From the NCBI GenBank assembly GCA_032718475.1, contig JAUCBJ010004360.1:1-33521 (forward strand): a DNA stretch of 33,521 nt, read 5' to 3'. The DNA is from Nemertoderma westbladi (lineage: Eukaryota > Animalia > Xenacoelomorpha). The translations under genes and the position numbers were made by a program. Under the pieces are notes generated by a model that had not been told where the DNA came from, made no database searches, and saw only the letters and a list, made by a program, of their open reading frames with translations. Shown in pieces: positions 391-30,388 of this stretch. The number at the start of each line of letters is the position of its first letter. Position 1 is the stretch's first letter.

Positions 391-757
391 GTTAGTCGTT
401 TATTCTTAAATTGTAACAATAATAATTATCCGCATTTAGTATAAACAGCGAGTATCAGCAGAGCTGATCATTCCTTAGTGATGTAATAATAACTTTATAG
501 TTGTAGGCGAGTATTTAACAATGGAAATAGACCTTAAATTTGTAGTTGAATTTCCGGAAAAACTTTTGATTGGTGTATTTTTTTACTAGTTGACAGTATT
601 TCATTAATTTGTATGGAATTAATTTCGCACTACCAAATCACCAGGGCGATATATTTTCAAACTTTACATCACAGTGCGACATTAGTTCTCAGTATGTCCA
701 TAAGACATACATTTACTATATATTTCCAGTATATCCAATCCTGTATGTCATAATGAC

Positions 758-2018
758 TGTTCGCGCTTTCGAAGACCTTTAGCAGTTTAACCTGCCAAAA
801 TTTATATGTCTTTTAGTTAATTAAAACCACTTTAGCATACGACAATAATTTATGCTAATACGCAAAACATTAGCCGAAGTCAGCCCATGCGCGATCATTC
901 ACCCGATGGATCTACACCCGGGAGACTGAATTCGGATGCTTGAATTGGATTATTACAGTGTAAGGTTGCAGTGTATACCTAATGTATTATTCGATAGATA
1001 GTTAATAATTAATCTCTGACAGGTATTATTGGCTTTCGGGAAATATTAACAGTTCCTTTAGGACGTGGCGCTTTATCTATTTAAACAGAACTAGGACTTA
1101 TACTAAACGCAACGATACTGCTTGGGATTGAAGTATAAAGCGTATTCTTTAGGAAATACTTTGTTACCAATCACAATCATACACACTATTCTGCCGACAG
1201 TCAGTACATTTGATCACACATAAAGAGAGCAGTAATTGACTCACGTAGGGTCTGCTAAATAACATTGGATTCAATACACACCACATTAATATAAATCGCA
1301 ATTGTTATATATAGCCGGTCTCTCTAACCTGTAGTGTTATCAAGAAAATTGGGAATTGGGTGATTTATCCGTATTATCCAAATAGCAATATTTCCATCAA
1401 CAAATATTTACAATTAATAACTGACGGTAAAATAACAGTACAAACAATATGATTAATGCAATTAAAAGTATCAAGGTGAGATGAGTGATTTAAGTCAGTG
1501 AGTTCGTTTCGTTAGTTAGGTAACAGTTTATACTTTCGATAATTCAAGCAGTTTACGGTACAGCAGTATCTATCCAAAAATGCCGGTGTTTCTGGCTTAG
1601 ACAGCAATAACAACAAAGTAACAAGAAAAAACAGTAAGACTGAACACTCTCCTTATGATCGACTAAAAGCTACACGTCGACAGGAAAAACCGCCCTGATT
1701 GGCCCAAGCCAAACAAAGAACCACGCGGCCAATGGCTGTTTCCATGTCAGCAACCAGCTGCTAGATGTCGTAATATGAATCATCACGGCTAAGCTGTGAA
1801 AGGTGGTTGGTGCATTACAAGTTTTTTGTCTTACCATGTCCGCTAAAACACGTATATAGCAGAATGATTTTTATGTCCGTTAAAACACCTATAAAGGTAC
1901 CTTGCGGGCGAGGGGAATATATATACAGTTAGAAAACCCTTTTTAGAGTATTCCAGCGCCTGGGGGGGAACTGGCCAGCAAAGGCAAACGTATCAGTTAT
2001 CCCACAAAAGCTTTTACA
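758..2018 (-). repeat. 3' LTR (1261 bp)
   Basis: Matches 12133-13393 at an offset of 11375; I saw only one mismatch (G948 vs T12323). A short purine-rich tract (minus strand GGGAGCGG, 2019-2026) abuts it as a candidate PPT. Confidence 0.95.
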
Positions 2019-2096
2019 CCGCTCCCAGAAAATGGGATTTAAGTCTATAAAATATACAAAATCACAGTTTCTAAAATACAAAAATACTCTAAACAG

Positions 2097-3632
2097 TTAG
2101 TCTTTCTTGCGCGGACGGCGTTTACGCAGTTTTTTGAAGCTAGCAAGAGTCCTTTTCTCTTTGGGGCGAGCCACTTTACTAGGAGGGCTATAACTCCTGG
2201 GTGAAGGGTGCAATATGATTGCATCAGAAGGTATGGGATTGCGATCGGTATATCCGCCGGTCGAAGTACCGGGTTGATGGACATCAACGTCCGGGGAGAG
2301 GGGTCTAACGGCTTTGAGAGCTCGTTTCAAGACAGCCGCTCTTACGGGTCCTTTACGAGTGGTCTGAACGAGGGCCGTGGGTGGACCATAGGCAGTTAGA
2401 AACTTCCTTGGTTTAATGGTTCTTTCTAACTCGCGTTCGCGGGCTCGATACTCGTAAGGCCGTCGATATACCTCTTGTAACTCAGGGTGTGAGTTGACGA
2501 ATAAGTCTCCATAGGCAGGGTCTTGACGGATAAAGTTTATTAAGTTGTAAGACTGGATGTCACTCGGATTAATGCTCCTGAGAAATTTACGCACATATTT
2601 GGTTGAAATACATTCTCCAACGCGCTTCAATAGTTCATAACTTGATAGGCGCGATTTCTGCTCGACGGAGGCAAACAAATATGGATGGAACGCATAAACT
2701 CCTTCATAGGCGCGTCCGGGATAATAGCGATGGCGTGAGTCACAATGCAAATCAGCGTTCGCCTCCCAAGCTCTTATATAACGTAGTACAATCATTTCAT
2801 CTACGCTCTCTAAATCATGGTTAAAGGGACAATCAAAGCTGGCGTGTCCTTTTAATTGACAATGATGGCATTGAGTCATAAATTGGGGGCAGACGGCAAA
2901 AATGTGCAAATTATTAAGCCGACAATATGCACAATAGATTTCCATCGACGGTTGCTCGTGGAAATAGGAACAAAGATCGTTGGTGTCCATAGACGTAATA
3001 TGGTCTCTCGATGAGCACAGCCGACAACGTTGTCGAGAAACATAATTGGCATGGCGATAATCATACGCAGTAAGACACTGTGGACCTTGATACCATTCCA
3101 ATATATAGTCGCTATCGCTACTCCGAGCCGTGGGGGGCTGAATCTCTTCCGATTCTAAACATATGGGTTCATCTTCCCCTTGTATAGTTGAGGTAGGTAT
3201 GGCCGTCTCCTCAAGTGGACCTACCGTCTGAATTTCCACGACAGAATAACCGGTGGGGATCCGAGGTCTTTGGATAACCGAGGAGTGCAGGTTTATTACA
3301 CAGATGTCTCGGAAAATAGCGAATCCAGCGCTATCCAACTTCTCCGCAGCTGAGTCTCTTAAGCTGAGCTTGGTCAAAGCGCGGTCTTTGAATTGGCTAT
3401 CCACGTTGCGAAACGGGGTTAAAAACCGTCGGAAACATTCAAAGCGGATGAATTTTCTATAGTCCGCTTCGCGCGTAAGTTGTTCCTGGGACATCGGCGG
3501 TTCGATATAGCGCCCATCGTCCTCCGTAATAGTCGGATCAGCTTCACCGCATATCAAGCTATCCACAAACGCTTGTAAAGGTAGAGTATATCGCTCTCTA
3601 ATACCAAGGTCATCTTCTATTAATTCCGTCAT
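2097..3632 (-). CDS. Retroelement accessory ORF, 511 aa, three Cys/His zinc-knuckle-like motifs and a basic C-terminus; function unknown
   Basis: Uninterrupted ORF whose ATG has the same AAATATG context as gag. Motifs CRLC-x4-H-x9-C, CAYC-x5-H-x4-C and CHHC-x4-H-x4-C. Ends KKLRKRRPRKKD. Confidence 0.8.
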   Translation of the reverse strand: MTELIEDDLGIRERYTLPLQAFVDSLICGEADPTITEDDGRYIEPPMSQEQLTREADYRKFIRFECFRRFLTPFRNVDSQFKDRALTKLSLRDSAAEKLDSAGFAIFRDICVINLHSSVIQRPRIPTGYSVVEIQTVGPLEETAIPTSTIQGEDEPICLESEEIQPPTARSSDSDYILEWYQGPQCLTAYDYRHANYVSRQRCRLCSSRDHITSMDTNDLCSYFHEQPSMEIYCAYCRLNNLHIFAVCPQFMTQCHHCQLKGHASFDCPFNHDLESVDEMIVLRYIRAWEANADLHCDSRHRYYPGRAYEGVYAFHPYLFASVEQKSRLSSYELLKRVGECISTKYVRKFLRSINPSDIQSYNLINFIRQDPAYGDLFVNSHPELQEVYRRPYEYRARERELERTIKPRKFLTAYGPPTALVQTTRKGPVRAAVLKRALKAVRPLSPDVDVHQPGTSTGGYTDRNPIPSDAIILHPSPRSYSPPSKVARPKEKRTLASFKKLRKRRPRKKD

Positions 3633-4445
3633 ATTTGCTATCTGAGTTTGTTAATATCAATATACGTTAATATTTTAGGTAAGCGGGCGTCGCTTCCTAC
3701 TAGGCCTTTTGCCCCCGGACAGTGGGTTTCTCAGCGCCGATGTACCGCTGTCGCAGTGTTTACGCCAACATGTAGCACAGCACGACAACGATAACCGGCA
3801 CAAGTCCCACCACTGTCCGTCCCAAAGGCTTGAATCCACTTGAGGTTATCTCAGTAGAGTTAGGGCTATTTTACAATTGCGATTAGCTACTGTAAACACA
3901 CTTTAGTAGTAACATTCACCTATAAACGCACAAATTCCATACAATCATTACTTACTGCACACATGCATACCATTTGTCCGTTAGTCAGTGTCTTCCAGAA
4001 TGTTACGTATTTACTATGTATCCTTGGATACTAATAGTGCGCTATGTATACTCTTATGCTACGCAATGGGGCAAGCCTTTTATTGTTCTTTTAACTTGCT
4101 TCTAATTCTAGCGTGGGTGTTGCCATGGTGACATTATGGAAAACTAGCGGTAGAATTAGGGCAATCCTCATGCATACAGATCTGGGATGTTATTTAATAG
4201 TAATTCTTTAATTGTCAATATCCTCTTTATGCATGATTTTATAAATTTTATCGGCTATTGACTATATGCTGGAGATTCTTACACTCTAATACACTCAATA
4301 TGAATCTCCGCTCCCATGATCTATTAATTACTGGAATTTTGGGAATGTTATAAATTGCACAAAATGACAATTTATGAAATTCATTTAAATATGAATTTAA
4401 TTTATTCCCGTGAATTTTATTATTTGATGTTAAATTGACATAAAT

Positions 4446-4717
4446 TTTATTCCAGAGCAAATCTGGGGACATAAGATCCTTAATTCTATGAAATTTGTCT
4501 TTTAAGAGTATCGGTAAGTGCTACGATATCTTAATCGACTAGAATTGTTAACGGATCTGAATTTTAAAGATTTTAATAAATATTAAATTAATATTTAGGA
4601 TGGGCACCAATTTATTCCAGAACTTGTCTGGGGACGTTAACCACTGATTCTAGAATTTGTCTTTCAAGTATATCGGTGGGTGCCACGATATCTTAATCGA
4701 CTAGAATTGCAGATGGT
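4446..4717. repeat. Two diverged ~110-bp direct repeats, each able to fold as stem-loops
   Basis: tttattccaga...tctggggac...attcta...tatcggt...cgatatcttaatcgactagaattg at ~4446-4558 and ~4611-4717. Confidence 0.75.
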
Positions 4718-5250
4718 CAAAAGTTTAACAGATTTATTTGCGATTTACGCTACTGTTAGAGGGACATCACGCTACTATATGTATTATTTGTTATAAGGTA
4801 GAAGAGCAATATCGCACGAAGCAATGTCAGTGTGAAGAGGCAAGTCGTTTCCAAGGTCTACCCAGAGCTTGGTTTAGCCGAGACACGAGGATCTGAACTT
4901 TGCATTCCTAATACTCTGCCTACCAATAATACTTAAATATAGTAGTGGCTTTACCGCACTTTAAGAAGTACTGACATGTCATCTTACTATAGTCTCGCAT
5001 TTATAATATAATACGGACAGTAAGGAAAGAGAAAATAATTACTTCTTGCCGTCGCACTAAATATATATTATAAGTAATTATGTACGTAATAAACACTAAT
5101 ATATTGCACTAATCTACTAACATTCTAAAATAACATTTTACTAAATAAAATTAAATAAAAACGATTATAATAAAGTACATAATAAAGTTCGCATATAAAA
5201 TGTAATAAAATAGATAAAATAATATAGTCATACACCCACTCCATATATAA

Positions 5251-8200
5251 TTACGTTATGGAGTCCCTAGATCTTTGTCGAATTAGGGAAGTGGTCGTAG
5301 GAAGAGTATCCTGCCTTCCATGGTTTCCGGACAGTTTTCGGTCTCTTCCCAGTAAACCTAAGCGACCAGCTGGGCGATTAGGCTGTCGTGTTACTTCCGC
5401 CGCTCCCTTGGCCTGTCTAATCTCCTCAGTGGTAAGATGAGGAGGCCATTCATCTTCTTCTTTACTTAGGGAGTCGGGTCCACCTAACCAGCCGGGAGTA
5501 TCTATCCGTTCTTGAGGAGTTGCTCTTCTGGAATCGATGTCGGCTGGATTAATCGTCCCAAGGCAATGTCTCCATTGATCTACATTGGAGTTAATATCGT
5601 CATTATCTGAGGAGTATGGTGTTCCCTCAGTTGGGTCGTCCACATCACTGCTCTCCACTTCCCCCTTTACTTGGTATACCTGTTGTTGAGGTAATCTCTC
5701 TTTGAGAGTTCTACGGGAAGGGCCAGTGAAGTACCAACCTACTCTAGTTCTTACCGCATAGGTTTGTAGTGGCTGTGGTTGAGCAGGCCGTTTCTCTAAT
5801 GGCTCGAGCGCCTCATGCGCGTTTTGGCCGATGAGTATTTGCACTCCAGGATAATCTGTCTGGAATCGAGGTATCTTAAGATGTTGGACGCTCTCATCTT
5901 CGTCCCAATTATAAAGGTCTGCTTGAGTAGTAGCAAAGTTCTTTATAGCCACCATTTTTACTGACCTTACACCTTGTGTTCCTAACTTATCCTGGGGGGT
6001 GGACAACACACCTACATAGTAATCTGCCGTCAGGGTAGATTTCCAAACCTGCATAATTCCTGACATATTCAATTTAGTCCGGAACTTGGGTTGTCCAGCA
6101 AAGATATCTTCGGCTAGTTCTTGATCGATGAATGTTCCTGTGCTGCCGGAGTCAAGTAGGGCGTTCACTATGTAACTCTTGTTGGGACCATGAACTCGAA
6201 CTTGCACTACAGGAAATTCTCTTATTCCTATGTTGGAAGTTGGAACTTTCCAAGATGGTTGTTTGTCAAAAGGAGTTGGAGTAAACTCGTCAGTGTCCTT
6301 TTCATCCGTAAGTGCTCGATACACTGTGGTATTTATTAGATAACAGGATTCGTTGGCATCGGAGAATTCGTCTGTATAGAATCCTTCCCACTCAGAACCT
6401 TGGTCAGTGTCGTTCACATCACTGAATTGGACATGTAATTCGGGCTCACTTACCTGACTCGGGTTGTCTCGTTCGAACTCACTGTGTAACAAAATGTGAT
6501 GTTTCGCGCCACACTTTGCACACTTTGCGTCGGAGTAACAGGTTCGCCGTTGGTGTCCTGATCTGAGGCAATTATAGCATAACCGCTTATTCCACAGGAC
6601 TGTACGTCTGTCTACAGGGGATTTCTTTAGAAATTCAGCACACGCACTCAAACGGTGAGGCCCGTCGCACAGCGCACATTTTGGTTTGATGTTACTCACC
6701 TTAACTTGGTTAACGTTATGCACTCTCGTTCTTTCTTCGGGCTTTCTTCCGTGAATTCTCTTAGGAGACGTAGGAGGAGTTGTTGTTACCTGTTCTCTCC
6801 TGTCACTGGTTCGAGACTTGTATTTACTTACGTCTTTATAGGTCTTGTTGTCATAGTAAGATTTTGCTGTGTCTTTCCCGCTGTCCTCTTCTTGAGAAGC
6901 TTGGCTTTCGCCGTCGTCAGTATAACACACTGGTATTATCCTTCTCCTAGAATCGGGTTTCTCACTTACCTTATTTTCCGATGTTTTCTCTCTGGCCTGC
7001 CTTATGAGTTGTAATTTTACTTCACTATCTAAGAAAGACATGAGATCAGCCATGGTAGGACTTCGTCGTTGTTGTTCATTCATGTACAACACTTTCTTGT
7101 CCCAGCGTGTACATACTCCACCCTTTGGTAAAGTAGAGACTACGGCTCCAATAACCATGGAACTCTGGTATTCGTGCGACTTACCTAACCAGTCCAGTTG
7201 TCTACAGATCTCTTGTATTTCATCGGAAAATTCTATAATCCCACTACTAAGGAAGTGTCGGGGGGCTACCAATTTTGTATACAGATACTTAGCTATGTTA
7301 TCTTTATTACCATACCTGATGTTTAATGTATCCCAAACTTGTCTTAATCCATCTGGATGTCCAATAAACTTTAACGCCATTAACTTGGGAGGTCCTTCCA
7401 AACACTTGATGAGGAATCTAAGTTTCTCTCCGTTAGATAGTACAGAGTTCTGTATGCTATCTTTGTAATATTCGTTGAAAGGTAACCATTTCATCTCATC
7501 CCCATTGAATTTGACGATCTCTCCCACTTTGACCGCTTGGCGGGCTTCTGTTCTAGCCATCTGACGCGTAAAGCTTTCTTGGGCCATCGTGTTATTTAAT
7601 ATCGAATTATCGGTATACAAATTTCTCGGATCATTATCAGGTCTATAGGGAATATCATTAATAACAGGTCTATAATCACCCTTAATAGGGTTTGCTATAG
7701 GAGTTTCAACTTCACTAGCAGTATAGATGCGTGTAGGCTCCACACCTTGCGCATGTGATACTTCAGACCTAACGGGTTGACTCAATGTTACCGGGGGCAT
7801 TGGTATGCCTTTTTGTATATTGACTAATTTGTCGCGTTCTAGCGCGATACTTTGCTGCACTTCTTGCAACTCTGCTCTACTTTCCCTCACCGTTCCCTTA
7901 AGTTGGTGGACAGTCTCCTGCATCTGTCCTAGCAGGAGATTCATCCCCCGCCGTCCCTCTTCCACCCACTCAACCGCCGAAGCGGGAGTCGCCAACATAG
8001 TAGCGGGCTGACGCGGGACGACGGGAGACAAATTATTGATTTCTCTCTCTGCTATCTGGACAGGGGTATTTGCATGGACTGTTCCACCGGGTACAGGTAG
8101 TGTAGTGCTATGTAAAGGGAATTTAGAGTTAAGCTCTGGAAGTGCAGGGGTCTCTAGCATAGAAGTGACTTTGGGAATTACAGGCCTAATGATTTCAGGT

Positions 8201-9867
8201 TCATCGACTATAGTAGGGAGTCTTTTGACCTGGATAAATTGTTCTATAGGTTCTGCACTACCTAAATCTGTGCTAGTTAGCTGTCTTTTAACAGCTGGGG
8301 GCAAATCAGGCAATTTGCGACGGTAATATGTTTTTCTACGCCTACTTAGATGAGATCTATTTCCTCCGCCTTCAGGATCGGTAGTATCACCTTCCTCCGA
8401 GGATGTGTATCCTTGGCGCTTGGGAGTAGATTTTCTCATCATCTGCATTTGATTAGCAGTGAACTGTTTATTTATACTGTCTTGTGTCTCTTGCAGATTT
8501 TCCAACTCCAGTTGGGTAGTCTGCTCAGATGCTCTCCTTTCTACTTCTGCCACTGCCTTCGCTGCCTTTCTTTCGGCTTCTGCTTCTTTTCTTTTGGCTT
8601 CTGCTTCTTTTCTTTCTGCTTCTGCTTCCTTTCTTTCGGCTTCTGCATCTGCCATAACCGCCGCCATATCCGCCGCCTTTTGTTCCTCTATCCTTCTTTT
8701 CTTTATTTGTTCTTCTCGGACTCTAGTGAGGCGGAGTTTTTCATCACATTCAGCTTGGTTTGCAGCTAACATTTCGGCATCGATTGAGTCTAACACAAGC
8801 TTGGTTCCTTCACTATTAGGGGAAAGTCCATGTAGCCGTCTCCTCAACTCTTCGTCTCCTAGGAATCGCTGATAGTCTGACAAATAAATGTCGATAGCGT
8901 CTCTAGTTCGCGGTTTCTCGGCGGCCTCTTCACTTTCCTCTTGAGCAAGGGTGACATCAGTTTGTTCGGAGACATCAGTCGGTTCCTCATAGATTGATCT
9001 CTCAGCCAGCTGGGATTTCCACGGGGCTGTTTCCTGTACTTTGAGATCTACTCGATGTAGCCAAGTTTTGACAGCAACCTGCAGCGACGTGTCCTGTCTT
9101 CTTTTGGAAGTTTCCTCAAAGGCTGAGAGGATTAGTCGAATGCGTAGGGTTCTTTCGCGTATTTGATATAGCAGTTCTTCCTGCTCTTGAGGTCCGTGAG
9201 GTTGTCGAAACAGTTGTTCCTCCAATCGCTCCAAGGATCCGAAGAATCCCTGCACATATCCTGCTGCCGACCTCTTCCAAACAGCTGGATCCATTGTATC
9301 TTTTGCCACTCCCATCCTGTGTATATCTTCCCAAGTAGCCTCGGACATATCAAACGGAAGTCCGAGTCCGGGAAAGTTCCATTGTGATTCAACAATAGAT
9401 CTCAATTCTTCCCTGGCGTATCCCGCGTAATTATCTTGGGTCGCTTGCTTATTCTTCGCCCAGTCGGTTTGATGTTCTTCCACCGCAATGAGTATAGTAG
9501 TCAGCACTGCAGCAGGAAGAGTAAGAAGGGGGTCCGAGTAGACTGTATCAGCCATCTGCACTCCATGTTCGGGAGTCAACTCTACAGTATCCGAACTGCT
9601 GGAGCTATCAGGTCTCTGGGAAGTAGGTTCTTGACCAAGATGTTGCTGCGATAGGACAGCTGCCTCTTGGTCCCGTTTTACCTGTGCCCGAGTGCCTATG
9701 ATGGACCTATGGTGGACTAGCCTAGGGTCTGATACTACTGGAGGGATGACCTTTTTTACAGTAGGAGGTGAGCCGAACTTCTCTTTTATTCGCTCCACAC
9801 TCCTATCTGAATCACAGATAGTGGTCTCGATCAGACTGTCCGACAGGTTTTGCTGAGTGTCAGACAT
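5251..9867 (-). CDS. BEL/Pao gag-protease polyprotein (1538 aa) ending in an RNase H C-terminal remnant
   Basis: Gag core (KFNGDEMKWLPF...LSNGEKLRFLIKCLEGPP, DUF1759-like). BEL-type triple knuckle CALCDGPHRLSAC / CYNCLRSGHQRRTC / CAKCGAKHHILLH (~6490-6680). Aspartic protease LLDSGS (~6142-6159) and AVRTRVGWYFTGP. Then QWRH..NPAD..SR..WLGGP..L...WP (~5445-5577). N-terminal EAERK coiled-coil repeats. Confidence 0.92.
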   Translation of the reverse strand: MSDTQQNLSDSLIETTICDSDRSVERIKEKFGSPPTVKKVIPPVVSDPRLVHHRSIIGTRAQVKRDQEAAVLSQQHLGQEPTSQRPDSSSSSDTVELTPEHGVQMADTVYSDPLLTLPAAVLTTILIAVEEHQTDWAKNKQATQDNYAGYAREELRSIVESQWNFPGLGLPFDMSEATWEDIHRMGVAKDTMDPAVWKRSAAGYVQGFFGSLERLEEQLFRQPHGPQEQEELLYQIRERTLRIRLILSAFEETSKRRQDTSLQVAVKTWLHRVDLKVQETAPWKSQLAERSIYEEPTDVSEQTDVTLAQEESEEAAEKPRTRDAIDIYLSDYQRFLGDEELRRRLHGLSPNSEGTKLVLDSIDAEMLAANQAECDEKLRLTRVREEQIKKRRIEEQKAADMAAVMADAEAERKEAEAERKEAEAKRKEAEAERKAAKAVAEVERRASEQTTQLELENLQETQDSINKQFTANQMQMMRKSTPKRQGYTSSEEGDTTDPEGGGNRSHLSRRRKTYYRRKLPDLPPAVKRQLTSTDLGSAEPIEQFIQVKRLPTIVDEPEIIRPVIPKVTSMLETPALPELNSKFPLHSTTLPVPGGTVHANTPVQIAEREINNLSPVVPRQPATMLATPASAVEWVEEGRRGMNLLLGQMQETVHQLKGTVRESRAELQEVQQSIALERDKLVNIQKGIPMPPVTLSQPVRSEVSHAQGVEPTRIYTASEVETPIANPIKGDYRPVINDIPYRPDNDPRNLYTDNSILNNTMAQESFTRQMARTEARQAVKVGEIVKFNGDEMKWLPFNEYYKDSIQNSVLSNGEKLRFLIKCLEGPPKLMALKFIGHPDGLRQVWDTLNIRYGNKDNIAKYLYTKLVAPRHFLSSGIIEFSDEIQEICRQLDWLGKSHEYQSSMVIGAVVSTLPKGGVCTRWDKKVLYMNEQQRRSPTMADLMSFLDSEVKLQLIRQAREKTSENKVSEKPDSRRRIIPVCYTDDGESQASQEEDSGKDTAKSYYDNKTYKDVSKYKSRTSDRREQVTTTPPTSPKRIHGRKPEERTRVHNVNQVKVSNIKPKCALCDGPHRLSACAEFLKKSPVDRRTVLWNKRLCYNCLRSGHQRRTCYSDAKCAKCGAKHHILLHSEFERDNPSQVSEPELHVQFSDVNDTDQGSEWEGFYTDEFSDANESCYLINTTVYRALTDEKDTDEFTPTPFDKQPSWKVPTSNIGIREFPVVQVRVHGPNKSYIVNALLDSGSTGTFIDQELAEDIFAGQPKFRTKLNMSGIMQVWKSTLTADYYVGVLSTPQDKLGTQGVRSVKMVAIKNFATTQADLYNWDEDESVQHLKIPRFQTDYPGVQILIGQNAHEALEPLEKRPAQPQPLQTYAVRTRVGWYFTGPSRRTLKERLPQQQVYQVKGEVESSDVDDPTEGTPYSSDNDDINSNVDQWRHCLGTINPADIDSRRATPQERIDTPGWLGGPDSLSKEEDEWPPHLTTEEIRQAKGAAEVTRQPNRPAGRLGLLGRDRKLSGNHGRQDTLPTTTSLIRQRSRDSIT

Positions 9868-10004
9868 ATTTAGTTATACAGTTGAATGTCTACTACTATA
9901 ATTTCAGTTAAAGCAAATCTAGTAATTCAGTATGACCACAAGCCTAGCGATTTATTACCGGTACCGTTACTCAGGTGGAACGTGATATATATACAATATA
10001 TTAG

Positions 10005-10228
10005 AATACCGGTATGCTTATAATATATAAGTATTATTACAGACTAGATTTGTCACAGAGTACCGGTATATAATTTTAGCACAAATATATATATATATAT
10101 AGTAGGCCTATAATGAATACCGGTATACAGCTTACACTTATAGTATATAAGTATAATTCTGGACTAGAATTAATTACAGGGTACCGGTATGATTTCAGCT
10201 CAAATTTATAGAAATAAATATAATAAGC
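10005..10228. repeat. Two diverged ~110-bp repeats in the element 5' leader
   Basis: ataccggtat...tatataagtat...gactaga...gtaccggtat...ttagc.caaat occurs at ~10006 and ~10117. Confidence 0.55.
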
Positions 10229-11211
10229 CTATGGTAAGTACCGGTATGTCAATTATTTTTAGAATAATTGAATTTCTGAATATTTTGGGGTTACTTCGTT
10301 ACTTTAACTTACTTTATTACCGTTATTTAAGCAGTAGTCCAACTGACAGTGAGACCTAGTTGTTGTATGGCAGGCCTACTATTTATAAATCGTTTGAGTT
10401 GATTTATAATAGATATATACCCGTTTAAAAGGGGTTTTGACAATATTTGAAATAAATGTTATTATTTCTGGGGGTCACTACACAGAAGCTGAACGCCTCT
10501 CAGTGAAGTGCTATTTATTTGACACTAAAACTGATGATTCTAATTTACCTAAGTTACTTAATACTACGAATTACTTACGATACGGGTGAGATTAATTCTC
10601 TAATTAAACACAACAAAATATTACGGACGAAATTTTTAGGGTAATTTTACAGGAAGTCTACAAACCAGTCTAACAAAGGGTTAGATTTCTGGCTATTACA
10701 AAGGACAGGGTACTACGGTATTTAAATAATAAGTAGTAGTAAATATATTGTACTGTCCAGATAGGAAAATACCACCGCCTGACGACCTATAACCGTATCG
10801 CTATAGGTACTACGTTATGTATCACGGATTGTTCCTACCCAGAAGCTAATAGAGCTAACGAATGTGCCTATCAACCACTTTACAACACAAATATACTGCC
10901 TACACTAATTACTTCGGAAGGCACTGTACTCTAAACCCTAAATTAGGTACAAGTACCGGTATAACAAATAATCAGTAGTTAAATATACTTGAACAGTTAA
11001 AAGAACCACGGCATCTGCTGGAGTGACCGAAGCACAAAGTCGTCAGTCTTTACCTACGCCAAGCAGCCCTGATGTAGTACCGGGGTTAGTTTAACTATAA
11101 CGGTATGTATAACAAGCACAATTACTGTAGGAATAAACTTGGGGACATGAATGTTGCGAATAATCGCATAAACTCTGAATAATAAATATTACGCTACCCG
11201 TACAGAATACT

Positions 11212-11745
11212 CAAACAAATACAAACCAAACGCTGGCAGACTACTATCAAGCCTAAACAAACTACTGTATGTGCAGATTCTGAAACTGTTAGTTAGTATG
11301 CGTGCTAACACGGTAGTACGACTTACTCTTTAAGAGGGGATTGACCTTACAGTGTTGACTGCCCCAACTTACTAACGGCACTTGATCAGACCAACTCTAC
11401 ACACGCAGCAATCCCTTCAGACCTAAAAATAGCTAGACAACAATCCAGCCTACAAATATTTGAGTAATAACTATTACGGTACCTGAACAGACCACACAAA
11501 CAAACACAGGCCAAAACACTGGCAGACTACGATCAAGCCTAAATAAACTACGGTATATGCAGACTCTGAAACTGTTAGTTAGTATGCGTGCTAACACGGT
11601 AGTACGACTTACTCTTTAAGAGGGGATTGACCTTACAATTATGACTGCCCCAACTTACTAACGGCACTTTATCAGACAAACTCTACACACGCCGTAATCT
11701 CTCCAAACCCAACCACAGTCAGACAGCAGCTCAGCCTACAATTAT
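11212..11745. repeat. Tandem duplication (~286-bp period) in the element 5' leader
   Basis: ctggcagactac...gttagttagtatgcgtgctaacacggtagtacgacttactctttaagaggggattgacc...actctacacacgc at ~11233 and ~11519. Confidence 0.85.
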
Positions 11746-12116
11746 CTGAACAATCTGAGCAGGGTCACACGCCTTCTGCTCAATATTAGCCTACTAGTAA
11801 ATAAAACTGACAGAAATAGACCTAAGTAAAATCCCAATAAAAACCAGGCGTCCCCGATTTAATATCGAGACCTACCGGTATACAATAATCAAAATCGAAT
11901 AATACTAATGTACTTATACAGCAGTACCGGTACCGGTGATGACAGTTAGGCCTACTGACCCACAGAAGCACCGGTTCAGTTTTACCAGTCACTACGGTAT
12001 TTTGCAACCCTATTGCCTACTGCAATAAGATTGTAAACCGTTACTGTTCTCCAGAACAGTATTAAACTGTATTTAATGCCTACACTTGCAACCTTATTGC
12101 CTACTGCAATAAGATT

Positions 12117-12132
12117 AAGTATAAACTGTTAC
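12117..12132 (-). promoter_or_regulatory. Primer-binding-site position; complementary to LTR sequence 12895-12910 rather than to a tRNA 3' end
   Basis: The minus strand reads GTAACAGTTTATACTT immediately after the LTR's CA. It has no TGG and is a 16/16 reverse complement of the LTR segment. Confidence 0.7.
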
Positions 12133-13393
12133 TGTTCGCGCTTTCGAAGACCTTTAGCAGTTTAACCTGCCAAAATTTATATGTCTTTTAGTTAATTAAA
12201 ACCACTTTAGCATACGACAATAATTTATGCTAATACGCAAAACATTAGCCGAAGTCAGCCCATGCGCGATCATTCACCCGATGGATCTACACCCGGGAGA
12301 CTGAATTCGGATGCTTGAATTGTATTATTACAGTGTAAGGTTGCAGTGTATACCTAATGTATTATTCGATAGATAGTTAATAATTAATCTCTGACAGGTA
12401 TTATTGGCTTTCGGGAAATATTAACAGTTCCTTTAGGACGTGGCGCTTTATCTATTTAAACAGAACTAGGACTTATACTAAACGCAACGATACTGCTTGG
12501 GATTGAAGTATAAAGCGTATTCTTTAGGAAATACTTTGTTACCAATCACAATCATACACACTATTCTGCCGACAGTCAGTACATTTGATCACACATAAAG
12601 AGAGCAGTAATTGACTCACGTAGGGTCTGCTAAATAACATTGGATTCAATACACACCACATTAATATAAATCGCAATTGTTATATATAGCCGGTCTCTCT
12701 AACCTGTAGTGTTATCAAGAAAATTGGGAATTGGGTGATTTATCCGTATTATCCAAATAGCAATATTTCCATCAACAAATATTTACAATTAATAACTGAC
12801 GGTAAAATAACAGTACAAACAATATGATTAATGCAATTAAAAGTATCAAGGTGAGATGAGTGATTTAAGTCAGTGAGTTCGTTTCGTTAGTTAGGTAACA
12901 GTTTATACTTTCGATAATTCAAGCAGTTTACGGTACAGCAGTATCTATCCAAAAATGCCGGTGTTTCTGGCTTAGACAGCAATAACAACAAAGTAACAAG
13001 AAAAAACAGTAAGACTGAACACTCTCCTTATGATCGACTAAAAGCTACACGTCGACAGGAAAAACCGCCCTGATTGGCCCAAGCCAAACAAAGAACCACG
13101 CGGCCAATGGCTGTTTCCATGTCAGCAACCAGCTGCTAGATGTCGTAATATGAATCATCACGGCTAAGCTGTGAAAGGTGGTTGGTGCATTACAAGTTTT
13201 TTGTCTTACCATGTCCGCTAAAACACGTATATAGCAGAATGATTTTTATGTCCGTTAAAACACCTATAAAGGTACCTTGCGGGCGAGGGGAATATATATA
13301 CAGTTAGAAAACCCTTTTTAGAGTATTCCAGCGCCTGGGGGGGAACTGGCCAGCAAAGGCAAACGTATCAGTTATCCCACAAAAGCTTTTACA
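12133..13393 (-). repeat. 5' LTR (1261 bp)
   Basis: Copy of 758-2018, upstream of gag on the minus strand. Contains a GC box (ccgccc ~13065), CCAAT boxes (~13073 and ~13104) and a minus-strand TCAGT initiator-like motif (~13014-13018). Confidence 0.95.
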
Positions 13394-13511
13394 ATGACGT
13401 ATACTGTAATGAACAATGACGTACTGTATATTTATTATTTTTATGAACAATGACGTGCTGTTAATATTAATATAGTACATGATATTGTTAATTTTACATG
13501 TCTATTTTTAG

Positions 13512-13740
13512 AGTGTGGCGGTATATTTTACAATGATTCTGGAACTATCCTTTCCCCTGGTTACCCTTTCGAGCGATACCCACACAATGTCACATGTTAT
13601 TGGAAGATTGAGGCACCGCTGGACAACATTGTTCGAATAAAATTTAATTTATTCGAGTTGGAACCGCATCCTAACTGTAACTACGATTTCGTAGAGATTT
13701 GGTACAACTACACCAAAGCTCCAGCTCAACTGGCGGACAA
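13512..13740 (+). CDS. Exon of CUB-domain gene (N-terminal part of a CUB domain)
   Basis: tttttag|AG acceptor whose phase matches the previous exon. Reads QCGGIFYNDSGTILSPGYPFERYPHNVTCYWKIEAP...FELEPHPNCNYDFVEIW...ADK, ending at an AA|gtaagt donor. Not listed in the ORF track. Confidence 0.92.
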
Positions 13741-14869
13741 GTAAGTTTGCGGTACAACTACACAAACGCTCCAGCTCAACTGGCAGACAAGTAAGTTTCT
13801 GGTACAACTACACCAATGCTATGGCTCAACTGGTGGACAAGTAAGTTTGTGGTGCAACTACACCAATGCTATGGCTCAACTGGTGGACAAGTAAGTTTGT
13901 GGTGCAACTACACCAATGCTATGGCTCAACTGGTGGACAAATAAGTTTGTGGTGCAACTACACCAATGCTATGGCTCAACTGGTGGACAAGTAAGTTTGT
14001 GGTACAACTACACCAATGCTACAGCTCAACTGGCAGACAAGTAAGTTTCTGGTACAACTACACAAACGCTCCAGCTCAACTGGCAGACAAGTAAGTTTCT
14101 GGTACAACTACACCAATGCTATGGCTCAACTGGTGGACAAGTAAGTTTGTGGTGCAACTACACCAATGCTATGGCTCAACTGGTGGACAAGTAAGTTTGT
14201 GGTACAACTACACCAATGCTACAGCTCAACTGGTGGACAAGTAAGTTTCTGGTACAACTACACCAATGCTATGGCTCAACTGGTGGACAAGTAAGTTTCT
14301 GGTACAACTACACCAATGCTATGGCTCAACTGGTGGACAAGTAAGTTTGTGGTACAACTACACCAATGCTACAGCTCAACTGGTGGACAAGTAAGTTTCT
14401 GGTACAACTACACCAATGCTATGGCTCAACTGGTGGACAAGTAAGTTTTGTGGTACAACTACACCAATGCTACAGCTCAACTGGTGGACAAGTAAGTTTG
14501 TGGTACAACTACACCAATGCTACAGCTCAAGTGGCAGACAAGTAAGTTTGTGATACAACTACACCAATGCTACAGCTCAACTGGTGGACAAGTAAGTTTC
14601 TGGTACAACTACACCAATGCTACAGCTCATCTGGTGGACAAGTAAGTTTCTGGAACAACTACACCAATGCTACGGCTCAACTGATGGACGAGTAAGTTTC
14701 TGGTACAACTACACCAATGCTACAGCTCATCTGGTGGACAAGTAAGTTTGTGGTACAACTACACCAATGCTACAGCTCAACTGGCAGACAAGTAAGTTTG
14801 TGGTACAACTACACCAAAGCTACAGCTCAACTTGTGGACAAGTAAGTTTCTGGTACAACTACACCAATG
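13700..14869 (+). repeat. 50-bp minisatellite, ~23.4 copies, spanning the exon end and splice donor
   Basis: Unit tggtacaactacaccaatgcta(c/t)(a/g)gctcaactgg(t/c)(g/a)gacaagtaagttt(c/g). GTAAGT recurs every 50 nt from 13741 to 14842, with a 1-nt insertion near 14449. Confidence 0.97.
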
Positions 14870-15029
14870 TTGCAAACAACATTATGGGATAGTTGCGTCG
14901 TTACAAACTCCCAAGGTTGTTCCCTTAAATAATCTTCACGTTGCCATTAGTTACAGTAGTAAACAAGTTGGTACAGCGAGATAATATCTCTGAACCAATA
15001 TATCTGTATAAATTACAATGTTTTTCTAG

Positions 15030-19556: not shown

Positions 19557-19885
19557 ACTATAATATTGCTTTTAATATTTTATTGATTGTTGCCAGATGT
19601 TTTATTTCTGTGCCTAAAGTTACATTGGTGATTTTATCTGTTCTCTCCCCATGTGCCTTGAGAAAACTATAGGAAAAGGCGCTATATAAATATTATTATG
19701 TATTATTATGTTATGTTATTTTATGTATAGAGGTACTTCAATTTCAATAGTCTAGTCTATTTTTTTCACAAATAGCCTACTTTCAGACTTTATTGTTGTA
19801 TTTTTACAATTGTATAATATTTTCTGATAGTTTCCGTTATACTGGTATTGGATTGGTGTACCGGTAGTAATTGTGTAATTTCGTT

Positions 19886-22411
19886 ATGTTGGCCCACAAA
19901 CTGGACGGAGGTGAAGCACGGACTGATGATATTCGTTGCCATGGCGACAATGGAACTGATTTCAGAGCGATGTTGCTTCGTCCTGAGGTTCAAACAGGTT
20001 TGGAGAGGAGTGGCTTTGTAACTCCGTCCCCTATACAGTTGCAAGCTATTCCGCTAGGTCGTTGCGGACTAGATCTTATAATACAAGCGAAATCAGGCAC
20101 TGGGAAGACCTGTGTGTTTACTGTGGTTGCCTTGGAAATGATAGACTTGGAATGTAAACGACCTCAGGTGCTCGTATTAGCTCCTACAAGAGAAATTGCA
20201 GTTCAGATACATGAGGTGATATCATCGGTTGGGAGGTCTCTTACAGGACTACATTGCCATGTGTTTATTGGTGGTTTATCTGTTACAGACGATAAAAAGA
20301 GATTGAAACAGTGCCAGATTGCCATCGGCAGTCCAGGCAGAATCCGCCAACTCATTGAAATGAAAGCTCTATCTACGCAAAATATTCGATTATTCGTCAT
20401 TGATGAAGCTGATAAACTTCTAGAAGATGCAATGCAAGAGCAAGTCAATTGGATATTTTCTGCTTTGCCTGGGAAGAAGCAAGTGCTAGCACTTTCAGCG
20501 ACTTATACCGAAACTATGACTCAACATATAACTCGTTACATGGCATGTCCCCATCACGTTCGTCTAGACTCTAAACGACCAATTCTAAAAGGATTAGCGC
20601 AATACTACTCTAAAGTGCCTCTTCATCCATCGTTCCCACATCGATCCTTCGAAGCCAAGATGGAGTTATTGTTGTCCATTTTAAATAGCGCGGCATTCCA
20701 CCAGTGTCTGGTGTTTAGCAACTCCCAGCTGAGAGCTGAAGACGTCTGTCAGAGGCTGCTGGAGAAAGGTTGGCCCACAGTGTATATATCTGGTAATCTT
20801 CCACAACATCAGCGACTCCAAGCAATGAGCAAACTCAAGCAGTACCAATGTCGGGTCCTGGTCTCAACAGATTTGTCGTCCCGTGGTATAGATGCAGATA
20901 AAGTTAACCTTGTGGTCAACTTGGACGTTCCAAGTGGGTATGACACTTACCTCCACAGGATTGGGCGTGCTGGTCGTTTTGGCACCTTTGGGGCCGCTGT
21001 TACCATAGCGAACGAAGGCAGCGAATGGGAGGTTTTGGAGAGGGTAGCAAGTCGCCACTGTCTCCCACTGGTTTGTCTACCATCGCCTATTCCATCTAAC
21101 TTGGTAGAGCTGAAAACTGAAGGGAAATACGGCTTTGCTGATCATAATGATGATTCAGTGAATAAAGAGGAAGAACCAATTGATCATAAAGAAGTTCTAA
21201 CAACTGGTACTAAAAATCAAATACAAGGCAAATCCCAATTTATTTCGGATAGTCTTGAAAATAAAGTATCTAAAAAAACAAAGTCAAAGAATTATCTCCC
21301 AAGAGGTGTGCAAAAGCAATTAGGAACTCTTTTTGATGTGGGGACGCAGACAGATGAAGCGGTTGTTAATGTTAGGTCCCAATGCGACATCAAATCTCCG
21401 CTGTCTAGAAAATCTATTGAATTCTCATGTATACCCGAGTATCGTGAAACTTTTGTTGACTTCCTTGTGCGTAGTCGCATCCAACTTCCCCCTCTGTATG
21501 ACAGATTCGCCCCACTGCCTGTCAGCGTACCGAATCCTTGTCCGTTTAAAGGCGATTATGTGGAGTCCTTGAGAGAACTTGGATTGGATGTTCGAAATTG
21601 TGATGATGTATTTATTGATGGTAATGTTATAGAAGGTTCGATCAATGTCAAGGATGTGGTTGCTGATGATAAAGATGATTCAGTTGAGAGTGATGATGCT
21701 TGCGATAAAGTGTATCTCACAGATGAGTTCATGGGTTCATCTTATAATAAAGGTGGTCCTGATACGAATGCAGATATCATAGACAGCTCTGCTAATCTAG
21801 ATGTTGTTTCCCCTCAAACTGATATTATTTGTTCTAGAAGTCCAGCCGACATACTCTGTAATTCTAGAAGCACCTCACAATCGATATCTGTAGGATTAGA
21901 GGCGACGGGCGACCAAGCAGTGTCAACTAACCATTTAGTCGAACGAGCAATCCCAGGTCATCATGTATCAACCGACCCAGATCCAACAAACCCACTACAA
22001 GTGCCAAACCCAACACACACTGTAGGATTATCAAAGCCAACCAACCCAGTAGCAGTGGCACATCCAAGGAAGATGAAACATAAAAATATTAGTCTATTCA
22101 ACCCTTGGATTCCAGTTCCTAAAGAGGAGAAGATAACGGACTCAACAAGCAATGTTTTATGGCAGCAGACCAGTTGCGTAGTAACAACTCGTGATTGCCT
22201 GGAATCGATTAACCAATCAAAACACCGTATCAACTCTACCCCTTCGGTTTCAACGACTTCGCCTAGTTTATCATCGTCATCGGACGAGTGCGATAGTTCT
22301 TCTTCTGAATCATCTACCTCTTGCGATTGCGAATATGTTAGTAACCAATTGCAAAGCAATACGCACCACTTTGCCAAATTACGTAGTAACCCATATTATT
22401 ACTTTAATTGA
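19886..22411 (+). CDS. DDX20: DEAD-box RNA helicase DDX20 / Gemin3, single coding exon, 841 aa from first ATG
   Basis: Q motif GFVTPSPIQLQAIPLGRCGLDLIIQAKSGTGKT (DDX20-typical), PTREIA, DEAD, SAT and HRIGRAGRFG, followed by a long low-complexity C-terminus. The ORF track start at 19871 is TTG; the first ATG is 19886. Confidence 0.92.
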   Translation: MLAHKLDGGEARTDDIRCHGDNGTDFRAMLLRPEVQTGLERSGFVTPSPIQLQAIPLGRCGLDLIIQAKSGTGKTCVFTVVALEMIDLECKRPQVLVLAPTREIAVQIHEVISSVGRSLTGLHCHVFIGGLSVTDDKKRLKQCQIAIGSPGRIRQLIEMKALSTQNIRLFVIDEADKLLEDAMQEQVNWIFSALPGKKQVLALSATYTETMTQHITRYMACPHHVRLDSKRPILKGLAQYYSKVPLHPSFPHRSFEAKMELLLSILNSAAFHQCLVFSNSQLRAEDVCQRLLEKGWPTVYISGNLPQHQRLQAMSKLKQYQCRVLVSTDLSSRGIDADKVNLVVNLDVPSGYDTYLHRIGRAGRFGTFGAAVTIANEGSEWEVLERVASRHCLPLVCLPSPIPSNLVELKTEGKYGFADHNDDSVNKEEEPIDHKEVLTTGTKNQIQGKSQFISDSLENKVSKKTKSKNYLPRGVQKQLGTLFDVGTQTDEAVVNVRSQCDIKSPLSRKSIEFSCIPEYRETFVDFLVRSRIQLPPLYDRFAPLPVSVPNPCPFKGDYVESLRELGLDVRNCDDVFIDGNVIEGSINVKDVVADDKDDSVESDDACDKVYLTDEFMGSSYNKGGPDTNADIIDSSANLDVVSPQTDIICSRSPADILCNSRSTSQSISVGLEATGDQAVSTNHLVERAIPGHHVSTDPDPTNPLQVPNPTHTVGLSKPTNPVAVAHPRKMKHKNISLFNPWIPVPKEEKITDSTSNVLWQQTSCVVTTRDCLESINQSKHRINSTPSVSTTSPSLSSSSDECDSSSSESSTSCDCEYVSNQLQSNTHHFAKLRSNPYYYFN

Positions 22412-22929
22412 TGCGATGCTTGTTTGTAGTTGGTTAAATTTAAGATGAAATCAAGTGACACTGAATGTAAATCAATGATGTTCTTAATACATTACATGAG
22501 AAAATAGTAGAACTTTTTCTCACCAACTTGTATTTAACGCCAGTGAGGTTATTAAAGAGTCGAGAGAATTGTTCAAAAAATAAGTTACGAAATTTTGTTA
22601 CGAAAGAAAGGGAGCAGTTCCTCCACTTTTAATCTGCACTGCACCCCAAAGACAAAGACGCCAGGCACCATTACGTGAGAGATTGATGATGACATGCAGG
22701 TATTGGATAGTGAATTTGTGTTTTATAGGCTTACCTTAGCTGTTAATGCCTCCAGTGTAAAAATTTAGACAATTCAAAGGAGACACAAAAATAATAATAT
22801 AATTTTTAAGAACTCTTATAACTCTTTAAGAACAGAAATTCCATCTAAAAATAATCCGCCTAATATTTTGTGGAATAAACTATTTTGGATATAAATAAGC
22901 CTTCTGCAGTGATAGTGTTATTCCCTGAA

Positions 22930-24800
22930 CAGGCAGTACTTTGTTAATTTGCAGGAGCTAATAAACCAACAGGTTGATGCCATCAATGATGCTGACGACA
23001 GCAGGCAATCATCCCAGGCATGGAGATCGATCAACTTGCTTGCTGGTCGAAAAAGCCAACCAACCACCAAGGTTAAGGCTGAATCATCAGCCGATTGCCT
23101 CAATGGTTGGAAGGCCCACTTTGAAAAGCTCCTCAATAATGACATGGTATTGCCTGGTAACTTTATAGAAGTAAAAGTGTCTGAGTCTGTACTCCCAGAT
23201 ATTCCTATTGGTGATATCTCCTTTGCAGACGTGAAGGCTGCTGCAAAGACCATTAAGACCAATCGTGCCAGTGGAGTAGATGGTGTTCACCCTGAGGTCT
23301 TTAAAATACCTGAGTGTTTAAAGCTCATCTATCCCATCATAGTAGACATGTACCGAACAACAAGAGTCCCACAAGAAATGAAAACAAATAAGTTGGTGCC
23401 AGTTCCCAAGAAGGGCATCCTAACACTCTATGGTTCTTTTCGGGGAATCTCATTGATCTCGATTGCTGTAAAGCTATACAATAGAATTCTATTAAATCGC
23501 ATCAGGGATCCCATTGAGAGACTGCTCCGTGGAAATCAGAATGGGTTCCGTAAAGGTCGTGGGACCATGGAGCCCATTTTGGCACTTAGAAGGATAATTG
23601 AAGAGTTATCAAAAAAGAAAGACAGGCATCTGGCTGTTCTCTTTGTTGACTTCTTCAACTCTCACTCACGTATGTTCAGCATACTTTCATTATATGGGAT
23701 TCCTGATGAAATTATTGCTGCTTTCAGATCTAGTATACGATGGTAAATCGACTAACATTTGTGTCTACTGTTGACCGCCGTCACACAGTACCATTTGAAG
23801 TGTTATCGGGCGTCCTCCAGGGAGACACACTTGCACCATTCTTGTTCATAATTGTTGTTGACTATGTTCTACGCATGTCCTTAGATCATCATAATGATGA
23901 TGAGGTGATGATAACTCCACCTACTGGCTCCAGAAGTCGAGGAAATCCTGCCAAGTACCTAACTGATCTAGACTTTGCTGATGACTTAGGAGTACTCTCA
24001 GAATCACTAGAGGGAGCCCAACGGCTCCTCGGCTCATAGAACATGCTGCTTCTAGTGTTGGTCTTTTTATTAACTCCAGAAAGACCAAAATTCTGACAGT
24101 TAACTTTGAAAGTCCTCAGCAAGTCTCTGGTCGGATGAGCATAAGCTCAAAGGATGGTATGCTTGAGCATGTGGACGACTTCTGTTACCTGGGATCATGG
24201 ATCCAGAAGTCAGGTGAGGACCTTCGAATACGTAAGGGAAAGGCATGGGCAGCCTTGAATATGCTTTCCAGGATTTGGAAGTCACCGAGAATTAATCGGA
24301 AACTTAAGGTCCGATTATTTAGAGCAGCAGTAGTTCCAGTACTCCTCTACGGGAGTCCATGCTGGGCTCTAACTGCTGAGGACACCAAATCTCTGGATGG
24401 CACATTCACAAGAATGCTACGCCGGTTTCATTGTGTCAAGTACAATGCACATATCTCCAACCAGACACTATATAACATTGGAGGTGTCTCATTGGTTCCC
24501 CCAAGGTTGACACTAGAACAAAATCGCCTCCGCTTTGCAGGACATTGCTTTCGCCGTGAGGACCAGCCAGTGCATAATCTTGTACTTTGGCAGCCTCATG
24601 GAGTGAATAAACATGGTGGACAGCCCATGACTTTCTTGAGACGCATCTTAAAGGACACTGGCCTTAAAGATGCGGATGATCTAGCAAATGTCATGGGTGA
24701 TAGGGAGTTGTGGCGGTGCAATTTTGTTGACAAGCCGGCACAGCATTCTTAAAAATGCAGCTGCAATGCAGCATGCCGATCCTAGTAGTAGTCAGTAGTT
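22930..24800 (+). mobile_element. Degenerate, 5'-truncated RTE-like non-LTR retrotransposon (RT in three frameshifted pieces)
   Basis: ORFs 22949-23746, 23740-24039 and 24135-24752 give QNGFRKGRGT, GVLQGDTLAPFLF, LDFADDL, FCYLGS and RLRFAGHCFR. A (TAG)n tail lies at ~24783-24800. The 5' boundary is approximate. Confidence 0.85.
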
Positions 24801-25321
24801 ATTGACAACCATTAAATGAGATCTGTCTTTTAGAATAATTGACTCTACAGTAATATGAGATAAGGGGATGTAGGGAGACAAGTGAAAATCTGTAGCTGGT
24901 CAATCTCTATCTGCCATATCTGGCAGGGACTTGATTTTGTTGACCAATATTGAGCAGTATTAAATATGTATGCCGTGATTACCTTTAGATCAATTAAAAA
25001 CACATTTCTTTAATGCAAATCACTTAAACTAATTAAAAACTGTAATGGAATGAGGTATGGTGATTCCTGCAGAATAATTTTTATGTACAATTAATTTACT
25101 TTTTTTAAGTAGAAATTAAGTAATTTCCATGAAACACACTGCTGAAAACGCTGTTTTTTGCTTGCAATTAACAAAATTAACTAATTAAATGCTTTTATCT
25201 TAGCTTCTCGAAGGCCACACGTAAATTCAACTTATAAACTTTTGCCGGACTACATGTGTACCAAGTTTGGTTATATTTCATTGGTCGAGTTGTTAACGTT
25301 AAAATATTTAACACAAATATT

Positions 25322-28808: not shown

Positions 28809-29222
28809 TGTAAAAGCCTTTGCTGAATTGCCCCGTTATTTTTATTATCTTTTACATTAAAATACTCTGTAGTTGATTTAATAAGTGTAAGAGACCGTAT
28901 TATTGCTGTATCGGTGTTTTTAGAGGATCTAAGACCTATTTCCTCCGTATGTGTACTGTGAAAGGCATATTTTATGATTCTATGGCAATTCGTGACGCAA
29001 AGGGGTGATAGCTACTCTTGAACAGTAGTTACTATGACTACGGTTAACAGCTGACATTCATACGTGTTGATTTCCTTTGTTCTACGGCGTCTCTCAGTTC
29101 AGTCAGCCAATTAGATCATCCTCATCCATGTTACATTACTGCAACAGTGTATTGCTGTAGTGTGTTGGACTTCAGACTATTTATCCTACTAACTAACTGA
29201 ACTTATACTGTCTGACTGTTAT

Positions 29223-30344: not shown

Positions 30345-30388
30345 AGGGAGGTCATCGCCAACCAGCTAACATAACACATGATCAATAT

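Follow-up and report, generated by a model that had tools for sequence, protein, structure and literature searches.

In Tf1, the RNA's first 11 bases are paired with the PBS, and cleavage by RNase H falls between bases 11 and 12 (PMC7175516); two further duplexes, in which the flanks of the PBS pair with the LTR, form the structure known as the pretzel (10.1101/2022.12.06.519325). The absence of a tRNA-type PBS and the presence of a complement to the element's own LTR after the 5′ LTR are described for Tf1/Tf2 (S. pombe), Tj1, Tosmo, and the Tf1/sushi and Tcn1 chromoviruses, all Ty3/gypsy (PMC7175516, PMC4600332, 10.1101/2022.12.06.519325). In Ty1/copia, self-priming has been predicted for the plant TAR lineage (Houba, Osr-1) from LTR complements of at least 10 nt located 0–5 nt past the 5′ LTR (PMC6317226), and an ancestral as opposed to a repeated origin of self-priming is discussed in PMC3601003. 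For Belpaoviridae, the ICTV describes an 18-nt PBS for tRNA-Arg or tRNA-Gly and a poorly understood replication (PMC8742986).

The window (the whole 33,521-nt stretch of Nemertoderma westbladi DNA analyzed here) contains on its minus strand a 12.6-kb LTR element in which the sequence that follows the 5′ LTR is complementary to that LTR at the LTR edge. As in the Ty3/gypsy elements listed above, a tRNA-type PBS is absent and its place is taken by a complement of the element's own LTR; unlike them, the element has a BEL/Pao Gag and protease, a match of 16 nt instead of 11, and no RT/RNase H, and unlike Tf1 its primer is probably internal, with a loop of 762 nt. The Ty3/gypsy chromovirus pol with chromodomain that marks the Tf1/sushi group is missing (the Gag-protease is BEL/Pao, and integrase is absent); the element is likely to be Tf1-like in the source of its primer, yet not a member of that group. 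The rule used for the TAR lineage would also select this element (16 nt at offset 0), although the two belong to different superfamilies and host kingdoms; for both, self-priming is a prediction.

A full-text literature search retrieved no paper with self-priming in BEL/Pao in its title, its abstract, or the sections available; the initial annotation knew of no described case. An earlier mention may exist in subscription journals, Repbase Reports, GyDB, or supplements. The available sections of PMC3601003, PMC6317226, PMC4600332, PMC5445492, PMC5341516, PMC7175516, and 10.1101/2022.12.06.519325 contain no BEL/Pao self-priming, and the main text of PMC3118150 does not mention primer, PBS, tRNA, or priming.

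Anatomy and class of the element

Sequence comparison within the window identifies a direct repeat (756–2018 and 12131–13393) with a single mismatch at 948/12323. Because the repeat is flanked by a 5-nt target duplication (GTCAT) and contains TG...CA termini, we place the LTRs at 12133–13393 and 758–2018 (Table 1); the two further bases common to both repeat copies are a coincidence between the PBS and the target duplication. The LTRs are one base apart, end in TG...CA, and have GTCAT on both sides; therefore, the insertion is recent and the LTR edge is exact.

Table 1. Features of the element (positions in the window).
Feature	Position	Strand	Remarks
5′ LTR	12133..13393	-	1261 nt, TG...CA; one base apart from 3′ LTR; edge set by target duplication
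3′ LTR	758..2018	-	1261 nt
Target site duplication GTCAT, upstream copy	13394..13398	-	
Target site duplication GTCAT, downstream copy	753..757	-	
Gag-protease ORF	5251..9867	-	1538 aa from first ATG; DUF1759, three zinc knuckles, protease motif LLDSGS
Second ORF	2097..3629	-	510 aa, several CCHC-like knuckles, just before 3′ LTR
Purine-rich tract GGGAGCGG at PPT position before 3′ LTR	2019..2026	-	Short; resembles tract of relatives
PBS position	12117..12132	-	16 nt abutting LTR; no TGG; exact complement of LTR 16-mer
Candidate self-primer, 5′ LTR	12895..12910	-	484 nt from LTR start, 762 nt from LTR end
Candidate primer, second copy in 3′ LTR	1520..1535	-	Same 16-mer
11-bp hairpin abutting 3′ end of PBS	12090..12116	-	Predicted fold
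Leader arm	12078..12087	-	Predicted pairing with 3′ ten PBS bases, four G-U pairs; extends hairpin
Degenerate second copy, in tandem, of LTR end, PBS, and hairpin	12006..12049	-	Differs by 2 substitutions over 12 nt and is 4 nt shorter
Promoter-like motifs	13014..13108	-	CCAAT 13077, GGGCGG 13070, TCAGT 13018–13014; consensus matches only
TATA-like run	13293..13300	-	Consensus match only
Invariant LTR block around 16-mer	12890..12930	-	No substitution at ≥1%; 272, 113, and 9 contigs (three studies)
Hypervariable, G-poor stretch just 3′ of candidate primer	12833..12889	-	

The Gag-protease ORF ends after the protease, and no RT, RNase H, or integrase was found among coding-strand ORFs of at least 55 aa between the LTRs. 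Its 58 database matches are nearly all Pao-type polyproteins (20–43% local identity), and the Pao marker PF05380 occurs with further BEL domains in 57 of them (the remaining match is a fused record); we assign the element from the Gag-protease only to BEL/Pao (Belpaoviridae). Shared with described members (Belpaoviridae, Semotivirus) are the DUF1759 Gag, three zinc knuckles, a related protease, TG...CA LTRs, and a 5-nt target duplication; in contrast with them, the element has no tRNA-type PBS and lacks a pol in which RT, RNase H, and integrase follow the BEL order, it is 12.6 kb long with LTRs of 1.26 kb, and it has an orphan knuckle ORF before the 3′ LTR. Because the copy encodes no RT, RNase H, or integrase (an absence that the initial annotation did not remark on), it is a non-autonomous derivative, and its RT would have to come from another BEL element (helper).

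The second ORF has no homologue among proteins of near length, and its atlas likeness to Air2-like knuckle proteins is weak (≤0.85; all atlas matches <0.9); it is intact although the copy lacks pol. A search with the Gag-protease and the BEL alignment found no match in viral contigs, a 22-nt LTR-end pattern found none in metagenome or genome contigs, and the element contains no tRNA and no Rfam family. A non-coding leader of ∼2.1 kb (9868–12005, minus strand) includes a 241-nt duplication (11228–11468 and 11514–11754, 88% alike), and a further non-coding stretch of 1.6 kb (3651–5250, minus strand) includes an 82-nt repeat.

Complementarity between PBS and LTR in the element, its family, and distant relatives

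The 16 nt at the PBS position (minus-strand 12132–12117) are GTAACAGTTTATACTT; they start G-T and are the exact reverse complement of minus-strand 12910–12895. The initial annotation had read these 16 nt as a PBS that does not begin with TGG and that perfectly complements 12895–12910 (also 1520–1535), with the match starting exactly at the LTR edge; sequence comparison shows the match and its start at the edge, and the nearest TGG is located 79 nt downstream of the LTR, so that, judged by the lack of TGG within this distance, an ICTV-type tRNA PBS is absent. No further site for the 16-mer occurs in the window with up to three mismatches allowed. Across the ∼10,070 positions inside the element, matches to the LTR are longest at the LTR edge (16 nt), and the best unrelated position reaches 12. 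In 20,000 dinucleotide-shuffled LTRs, no match at offsets 0–3 is as long as 14 nt (the best, 13 nt, occurs in seven shuffles), and the analytic chance expectation is ∼1e-6 per LTR. The duplex of PBS and 16-mer is worth −20.2 kcal/mol, compared with −10.1 ± 1.5 kcal/mol for shuffled LTRs, none of which (0 of 200) is as good.

When the whole leader is folded, the probability of this pairing is ∼0.9 for RNAs that start at 12910–12930; for longer RNAs, it is present in the minimum-energy fold for three of four start points and costs 0.1 kcal/mol for the fourth. With a start at 13014–13016 the ensemble probability is 0.08, yet the pairing is present in the minimum-energy fold. The folding of a 1-kb RNA is unreliable; therefore, these folds show feasibility only. 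The PBS flanks form local hairpins instead of pretzel duplexes; the Tf1 pretzel duplexes were not found, that is, the pairing of the PBS flanks with U5 is no better than in shuffles (fractions 0.92 and 0.25). The hairpin that abuts the PBS and the leader arm together have a local fold z of −4.5 (0 of 200 shuffles). The model of the leader would allow the pairing of PBS and leader arm to be a closed state in competition with the LTR primer, which would have to displace the arm. In the degenerate tandem copy (12006–12049), the hairpin is preserved via a G-U pair. We considered whether four additional bases of the PBS had been copied from a longer primer; these bases also pair with the leader arm (12084–12087), and a slip between two TA pairs accounts for their loss too.

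The promoter-like motifs noted in the initial annotation (CCAAT, GGGCGG, and TCAGT) are present, and a promoter with a start ∼106 nt upstream of the 16-mer is possible from their positions. The 16-mer itself contains TATAAA (at 12907), to which the initial annotation did not refer. No AATAAA or ATTAAA occurs in the LTR. As a separate candidate, splicing from a GT at 13275 to the AG before 12907 would rebuild the same 16-mer; we rejected it on site scores that are too low (donor, 2.5; acceptor, AG 12908–12909, −5.9 vs 12–21 in the relatives described below). The complement in the window element is contiguous and not assembled by splicing.

The family is represented in public contigs from four studies with deep coverage; the surroundings of the 16-mer are covered as a 91-nt stretch in three of these, and X6, a data set guessed to be RNA, has no cover at 12880–12938, a gap that we left uncounted. 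The runs contain 79–133 variable sites each (at ≥5%, in 1751 nt), and the family is high-copy. The 41-nt block around the 16-mer is free of substitutions at ≥1%, indel alleles appear from 12922 upward, many different loose ends occur at 12877–12894, and the depth drops steeply below 12890. From the site rates, an empty 41-nt block would arise by chance with p ∼0.02–0.15; also, because 20 nt upstream of the 16-mer belong to the block, a role as promoter could explain its invariance as well, so we take it as moderate evidence only.

Two observations at the PBS agree less well with self-pairing. A 4-nt deletion at 12116, which in X1 and X3 makes up ∼40% of the depth, cuts the match to 13 nt; no LTR change that matches it was found in the public contigs, and some of the contigs with the deletion may be the tandem second copy, misplaced. 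At a loose end at 12086 in X1, the LTR end is followed by another sequence (10 contigs, with a median of 9 letters) that starts A-T and differs at several positions; its LTR partner was absent from the 14 loose ends inspected of 17. The family contigs are short, with PBS and LTR alleles unphased.

Distant relatives were collected with an alignment of 21 full-length BEL proteins taken from the database matches, which gave 101 loci (79 + 22); 40 of these have a direct repeat, 19 have both LTR ends, and 15 were used after the removal of two that are not LTR-like (L061, L080) and two duplicates (L017 and L093, of L020 and L006, respectively). The window element is 20–30% identical to the relatives. 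A uniform test, that is, a perfect self-complement of at least 10 nt at −3 to +5 nt relative to the LTR end, identifies 11 of the 15: the complement is contiguous in three, and in eight it spans a predicted intron (GT[AG]AG donor, pyrimidine-rich YAG acceptor). As a control, among 232 cross pairs between non-sisters, the window element included, one reaches 10 nt. Three cases added by hand and post hoc, L026 (11 nt, edge corrected by 10 nt), L092 (11 nt), and L089 (10 of 11, one mismatch), bring the total to 14 of 15. Thus, the self-pairing relatives are L016, L031, and L057, plus eleven in which the PBS pairs with a predicted exon–exon junction (L006, L012, L020, L026, L033, L050, L065, L084, L085, L089, and L092). 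A TGG-type PBS is present in one of the 15 (L051), two bases past the LTR (L051:405–425); the coding match in this locus starts late, and its LTR pair may need checking.

The 14 self-pairing relatives resemble the window element in that their PBS is not of the TGG type, complements their own LTR, and starts G-T or A-T; this start is at the first or second base of the paired stretch in 11 of 11 lineages. Offset-0 starts and similar purine tracts, as in the window element, are found in L089, L092, and L074. Unlike the window element, 11 of the 14 build the complement across a predicted intron in the LTR, and the relatives have shorter LTRs and pol sequence; their LTRs measure 177–862 nt, with the primer 44–216 nt from the LTR end where measured. 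In the junction-pairing relatives, the intron must remain in the 3′ LTR copy if it is to be inherited. The initial annotation had proposed a search for covariation of PBS and LTR within the element's own family; among the distant relatives, matched changes on both sides separate sister families: two positions in L084/L085 (which have the same donor), one in L012/L065, and also L092/L074. In 10 of the 11 relatives examined for it, AATAAA or ATTAAA follows on the 3′ side of the primer at a distance of 0–97 nt (immediately after it in L084/L085), as fits the model, because strand transfer after a cut at this position requires such a signal. Where TATA boxes are visible (L065, L084, L085), they are >100 nt upstream of the primer; therefore, an internal primer looks usual for the group, and this eases the caveat in the initial annotation about a start ∼100 nt upstream of the 16-mer.

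Sixty loci without fixed LTR ends provide five canonical splice-junction matches vs none in shuffles; contiguous matches of at least 11 nt occur in 10 of these loci vs 7 in shuffles, so matches of 11–13 nt were left uncounted. A quick Gag-protease tree, in which five rows are less than half filled, places the window element on a long branch in no supported set; in the same tree, contiguous and spliced types occur together in one supported clade (L031 with L033), which fits either loss or gain of an intron. As separate observations on these loci, 22 contigs with BEL/Pao coding sequence (L080–L101) are filed in bacterial genome bins, most likely because DNA of the host animal was binned together with that of symbionts, and L055 contains a BEL element that is apparently head-to-tail tandem, with LTRs in common and Gag matches every 6138 nt.

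Probable priming by the element's own RNA and its alternatives

Because the complement is conserved in the family, the relatives pair their own differing PBSs, and compensatory changes occur, priming by the element's own RNA in place of a tRNA is supported; taking all routes together, we regard it as highly probable from these comparisons. The proposal in the initial annotation that the element primes as Tf1 does is therefore retained, on indirect grounds, for the source of the primer; sameness with Tf1 is not, since the primer is probably not 5′-terminal, there is no pretzel, and the copy lacks RT/RNase H. Tf1-like priming in cis from the 16-mer of the 5′ LTR is the route that we favor, with reasonable though limited confidence. 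Along this route, transcription would start upstream of 12910, probably by at least 100 nt, so that the partner would be internal to R and the 16-mer probably not at the 5′ end of the RNA. The LTR partner would displace the local hairpin arm and pair with the PBS across the 762-nt loop, and the PBS duplex would stack on the adjacent 11-bp hairpin. RT/RNase H from an autonomous BEL helper would then cut the RNA just 3′ of C12895 and leave a 3′-OH paired to the first base past the LTR; minus-strand synthesis would begin with the last base of the LTR, and the strong-stop DNA would be transferred into the 3′ LTR, downstream of 1520. All enzymatic steps in this scheme are modeled on Tf1. Speaking against this route are the low ensemble probability with a start at 13014–13016, the missing pretzel duplexes, the TATAAA within the 16-mer, the deletion and the loose end near the PBS, the lack of AATAAA or ATTAAA in this LTR, and the position of the window element outside any supported set of relatives.

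The same 16-mer is present in both LTRs, so the element's own RNA might prime by a route other than the 5′ loop, that is, from the 3′ LTR copy (1520–1535), close to the 3′ end of the RNA, or in trans from a solo or 5′ LTR that is transcribed into a short RNA, trimmed or cut so that it ends with the 16-mer. In favor of this, the loop of the cis route is long (762 nt), its duplex is marginal if the RNA starts at 13016, and the family is high-copy; with the poly(A) signal 0–97 nt 3′ of the primer, as in relatives, short LTR-only RNAs would have the primer near their 3′ end. This explanation would also stand if the TATAAA at 12907 is a TATA box, in which case the 5′ copy of the 16-mer would be excluded from the RNA, contrary to the cis model. 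However, the short LTR RNAs are a postulate, a primer taken from the 3′ copy would presumably use up the acceptor for the first strand transfer, and the self-primers documented in the available sections of PMC7175516 and PMC5341516 act in cis and derive from the 5′ R region; we consider the explanation unlikely, with a chance still worth keeping in mind. Less probable again is that the pairing is a conserved RNA structure (for packaging, dimerization, or a translation switch) and that the host supplies the primer used at this site (for example, half of a tRNA, a mitochondrial tRNA, or a small RNA). The alternative pairing of the PBS with the leader arm (12078–12087) does give the region the look of a switch, some Ty1/copia lineages prime with half-tRNAs (PMC6317226), and the ICTV describes Belpaoviridae as tRNA-primed (PMC8742986). 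Nevertheless, the PBSs of the lineages differ, with each fitting its own LTR and not those of others (1 of 232), so each lineage would need a separate host RNA; moreover, the pairing begins at or beside the LTR edge, where synthesis must begin, and no tRNA or Rfam family occurs in the element.

A functionless chance match or one-off inverted duplication could be entertained for a copy that is defective for pol and has other leader rearrangements (e.g., the tandem PBS copy). This reading is very improbable and is largely refuted by the shuffles (chance probability ∼1e-6, with a start exactly at the LTR edge), by conservation over a high-copy family in three studies, and by the same geometry in 11–14 of 15 relatives. 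For own-RNA priming more broadly, we give an even chance to the generalization that a large branch of BEL/Pao would use an internal LTR-RNA primer cut after A-C or A-U, with neither a Tf1 pretzel nor a 5′-terminal primer, that is mostly built by splicing, contiguous primers reflecting intron loss. The descent of the contiguous 16-mer in the window element from a splice-assembled primer via intron loss is speculative.

The complementarity likely reflects self-priming in a superfamily in which the searched papers do not describe it. If a broad branch of BEL/Pao primes in this way, self-priming would occur in each of the three large LTR superfamilies, a point relevant to its ancestral vs repeated origin. 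An internal primer without a pretzel implies a cleavage rule other than that of Tf1, and with splice-built primers, as predicted in the relatives, copying would depend on host splicing, which would gate replication. Fragments of tRNAs exert control at the PBS of retroelements; elements that prime with their own RNA would be beyond this control, and their mode of priming would account for their being missed by PBS-based annotation. The predicted 3′ end of the primer is a single nucleotide (12895), so the claim is directly testable.

Neighboring sequence in the window

A tandem array (50-nt unit, ∼28 copies) is located at 13596–14996, starting ∼200 nt from the 5′ LTR. On the plus strand, an 846-codon open frame with DEAD-box and helicase C domains (19871–22411) is located amid retroelement fragments; it may be an intronless gene, a retrocopy, or mobile cargo. 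Several pieces of non-LTR retroelements occupy 22916–33181, with RT at 22916–23746 and 26236–27117 and a PHD ORF (29193–30344) followed by an endonuclease-RT ORF (30317–33181); two blocks of a G-rich 26-nt minisatellite are found at ∼25300–26100 and ∼28000–28850.
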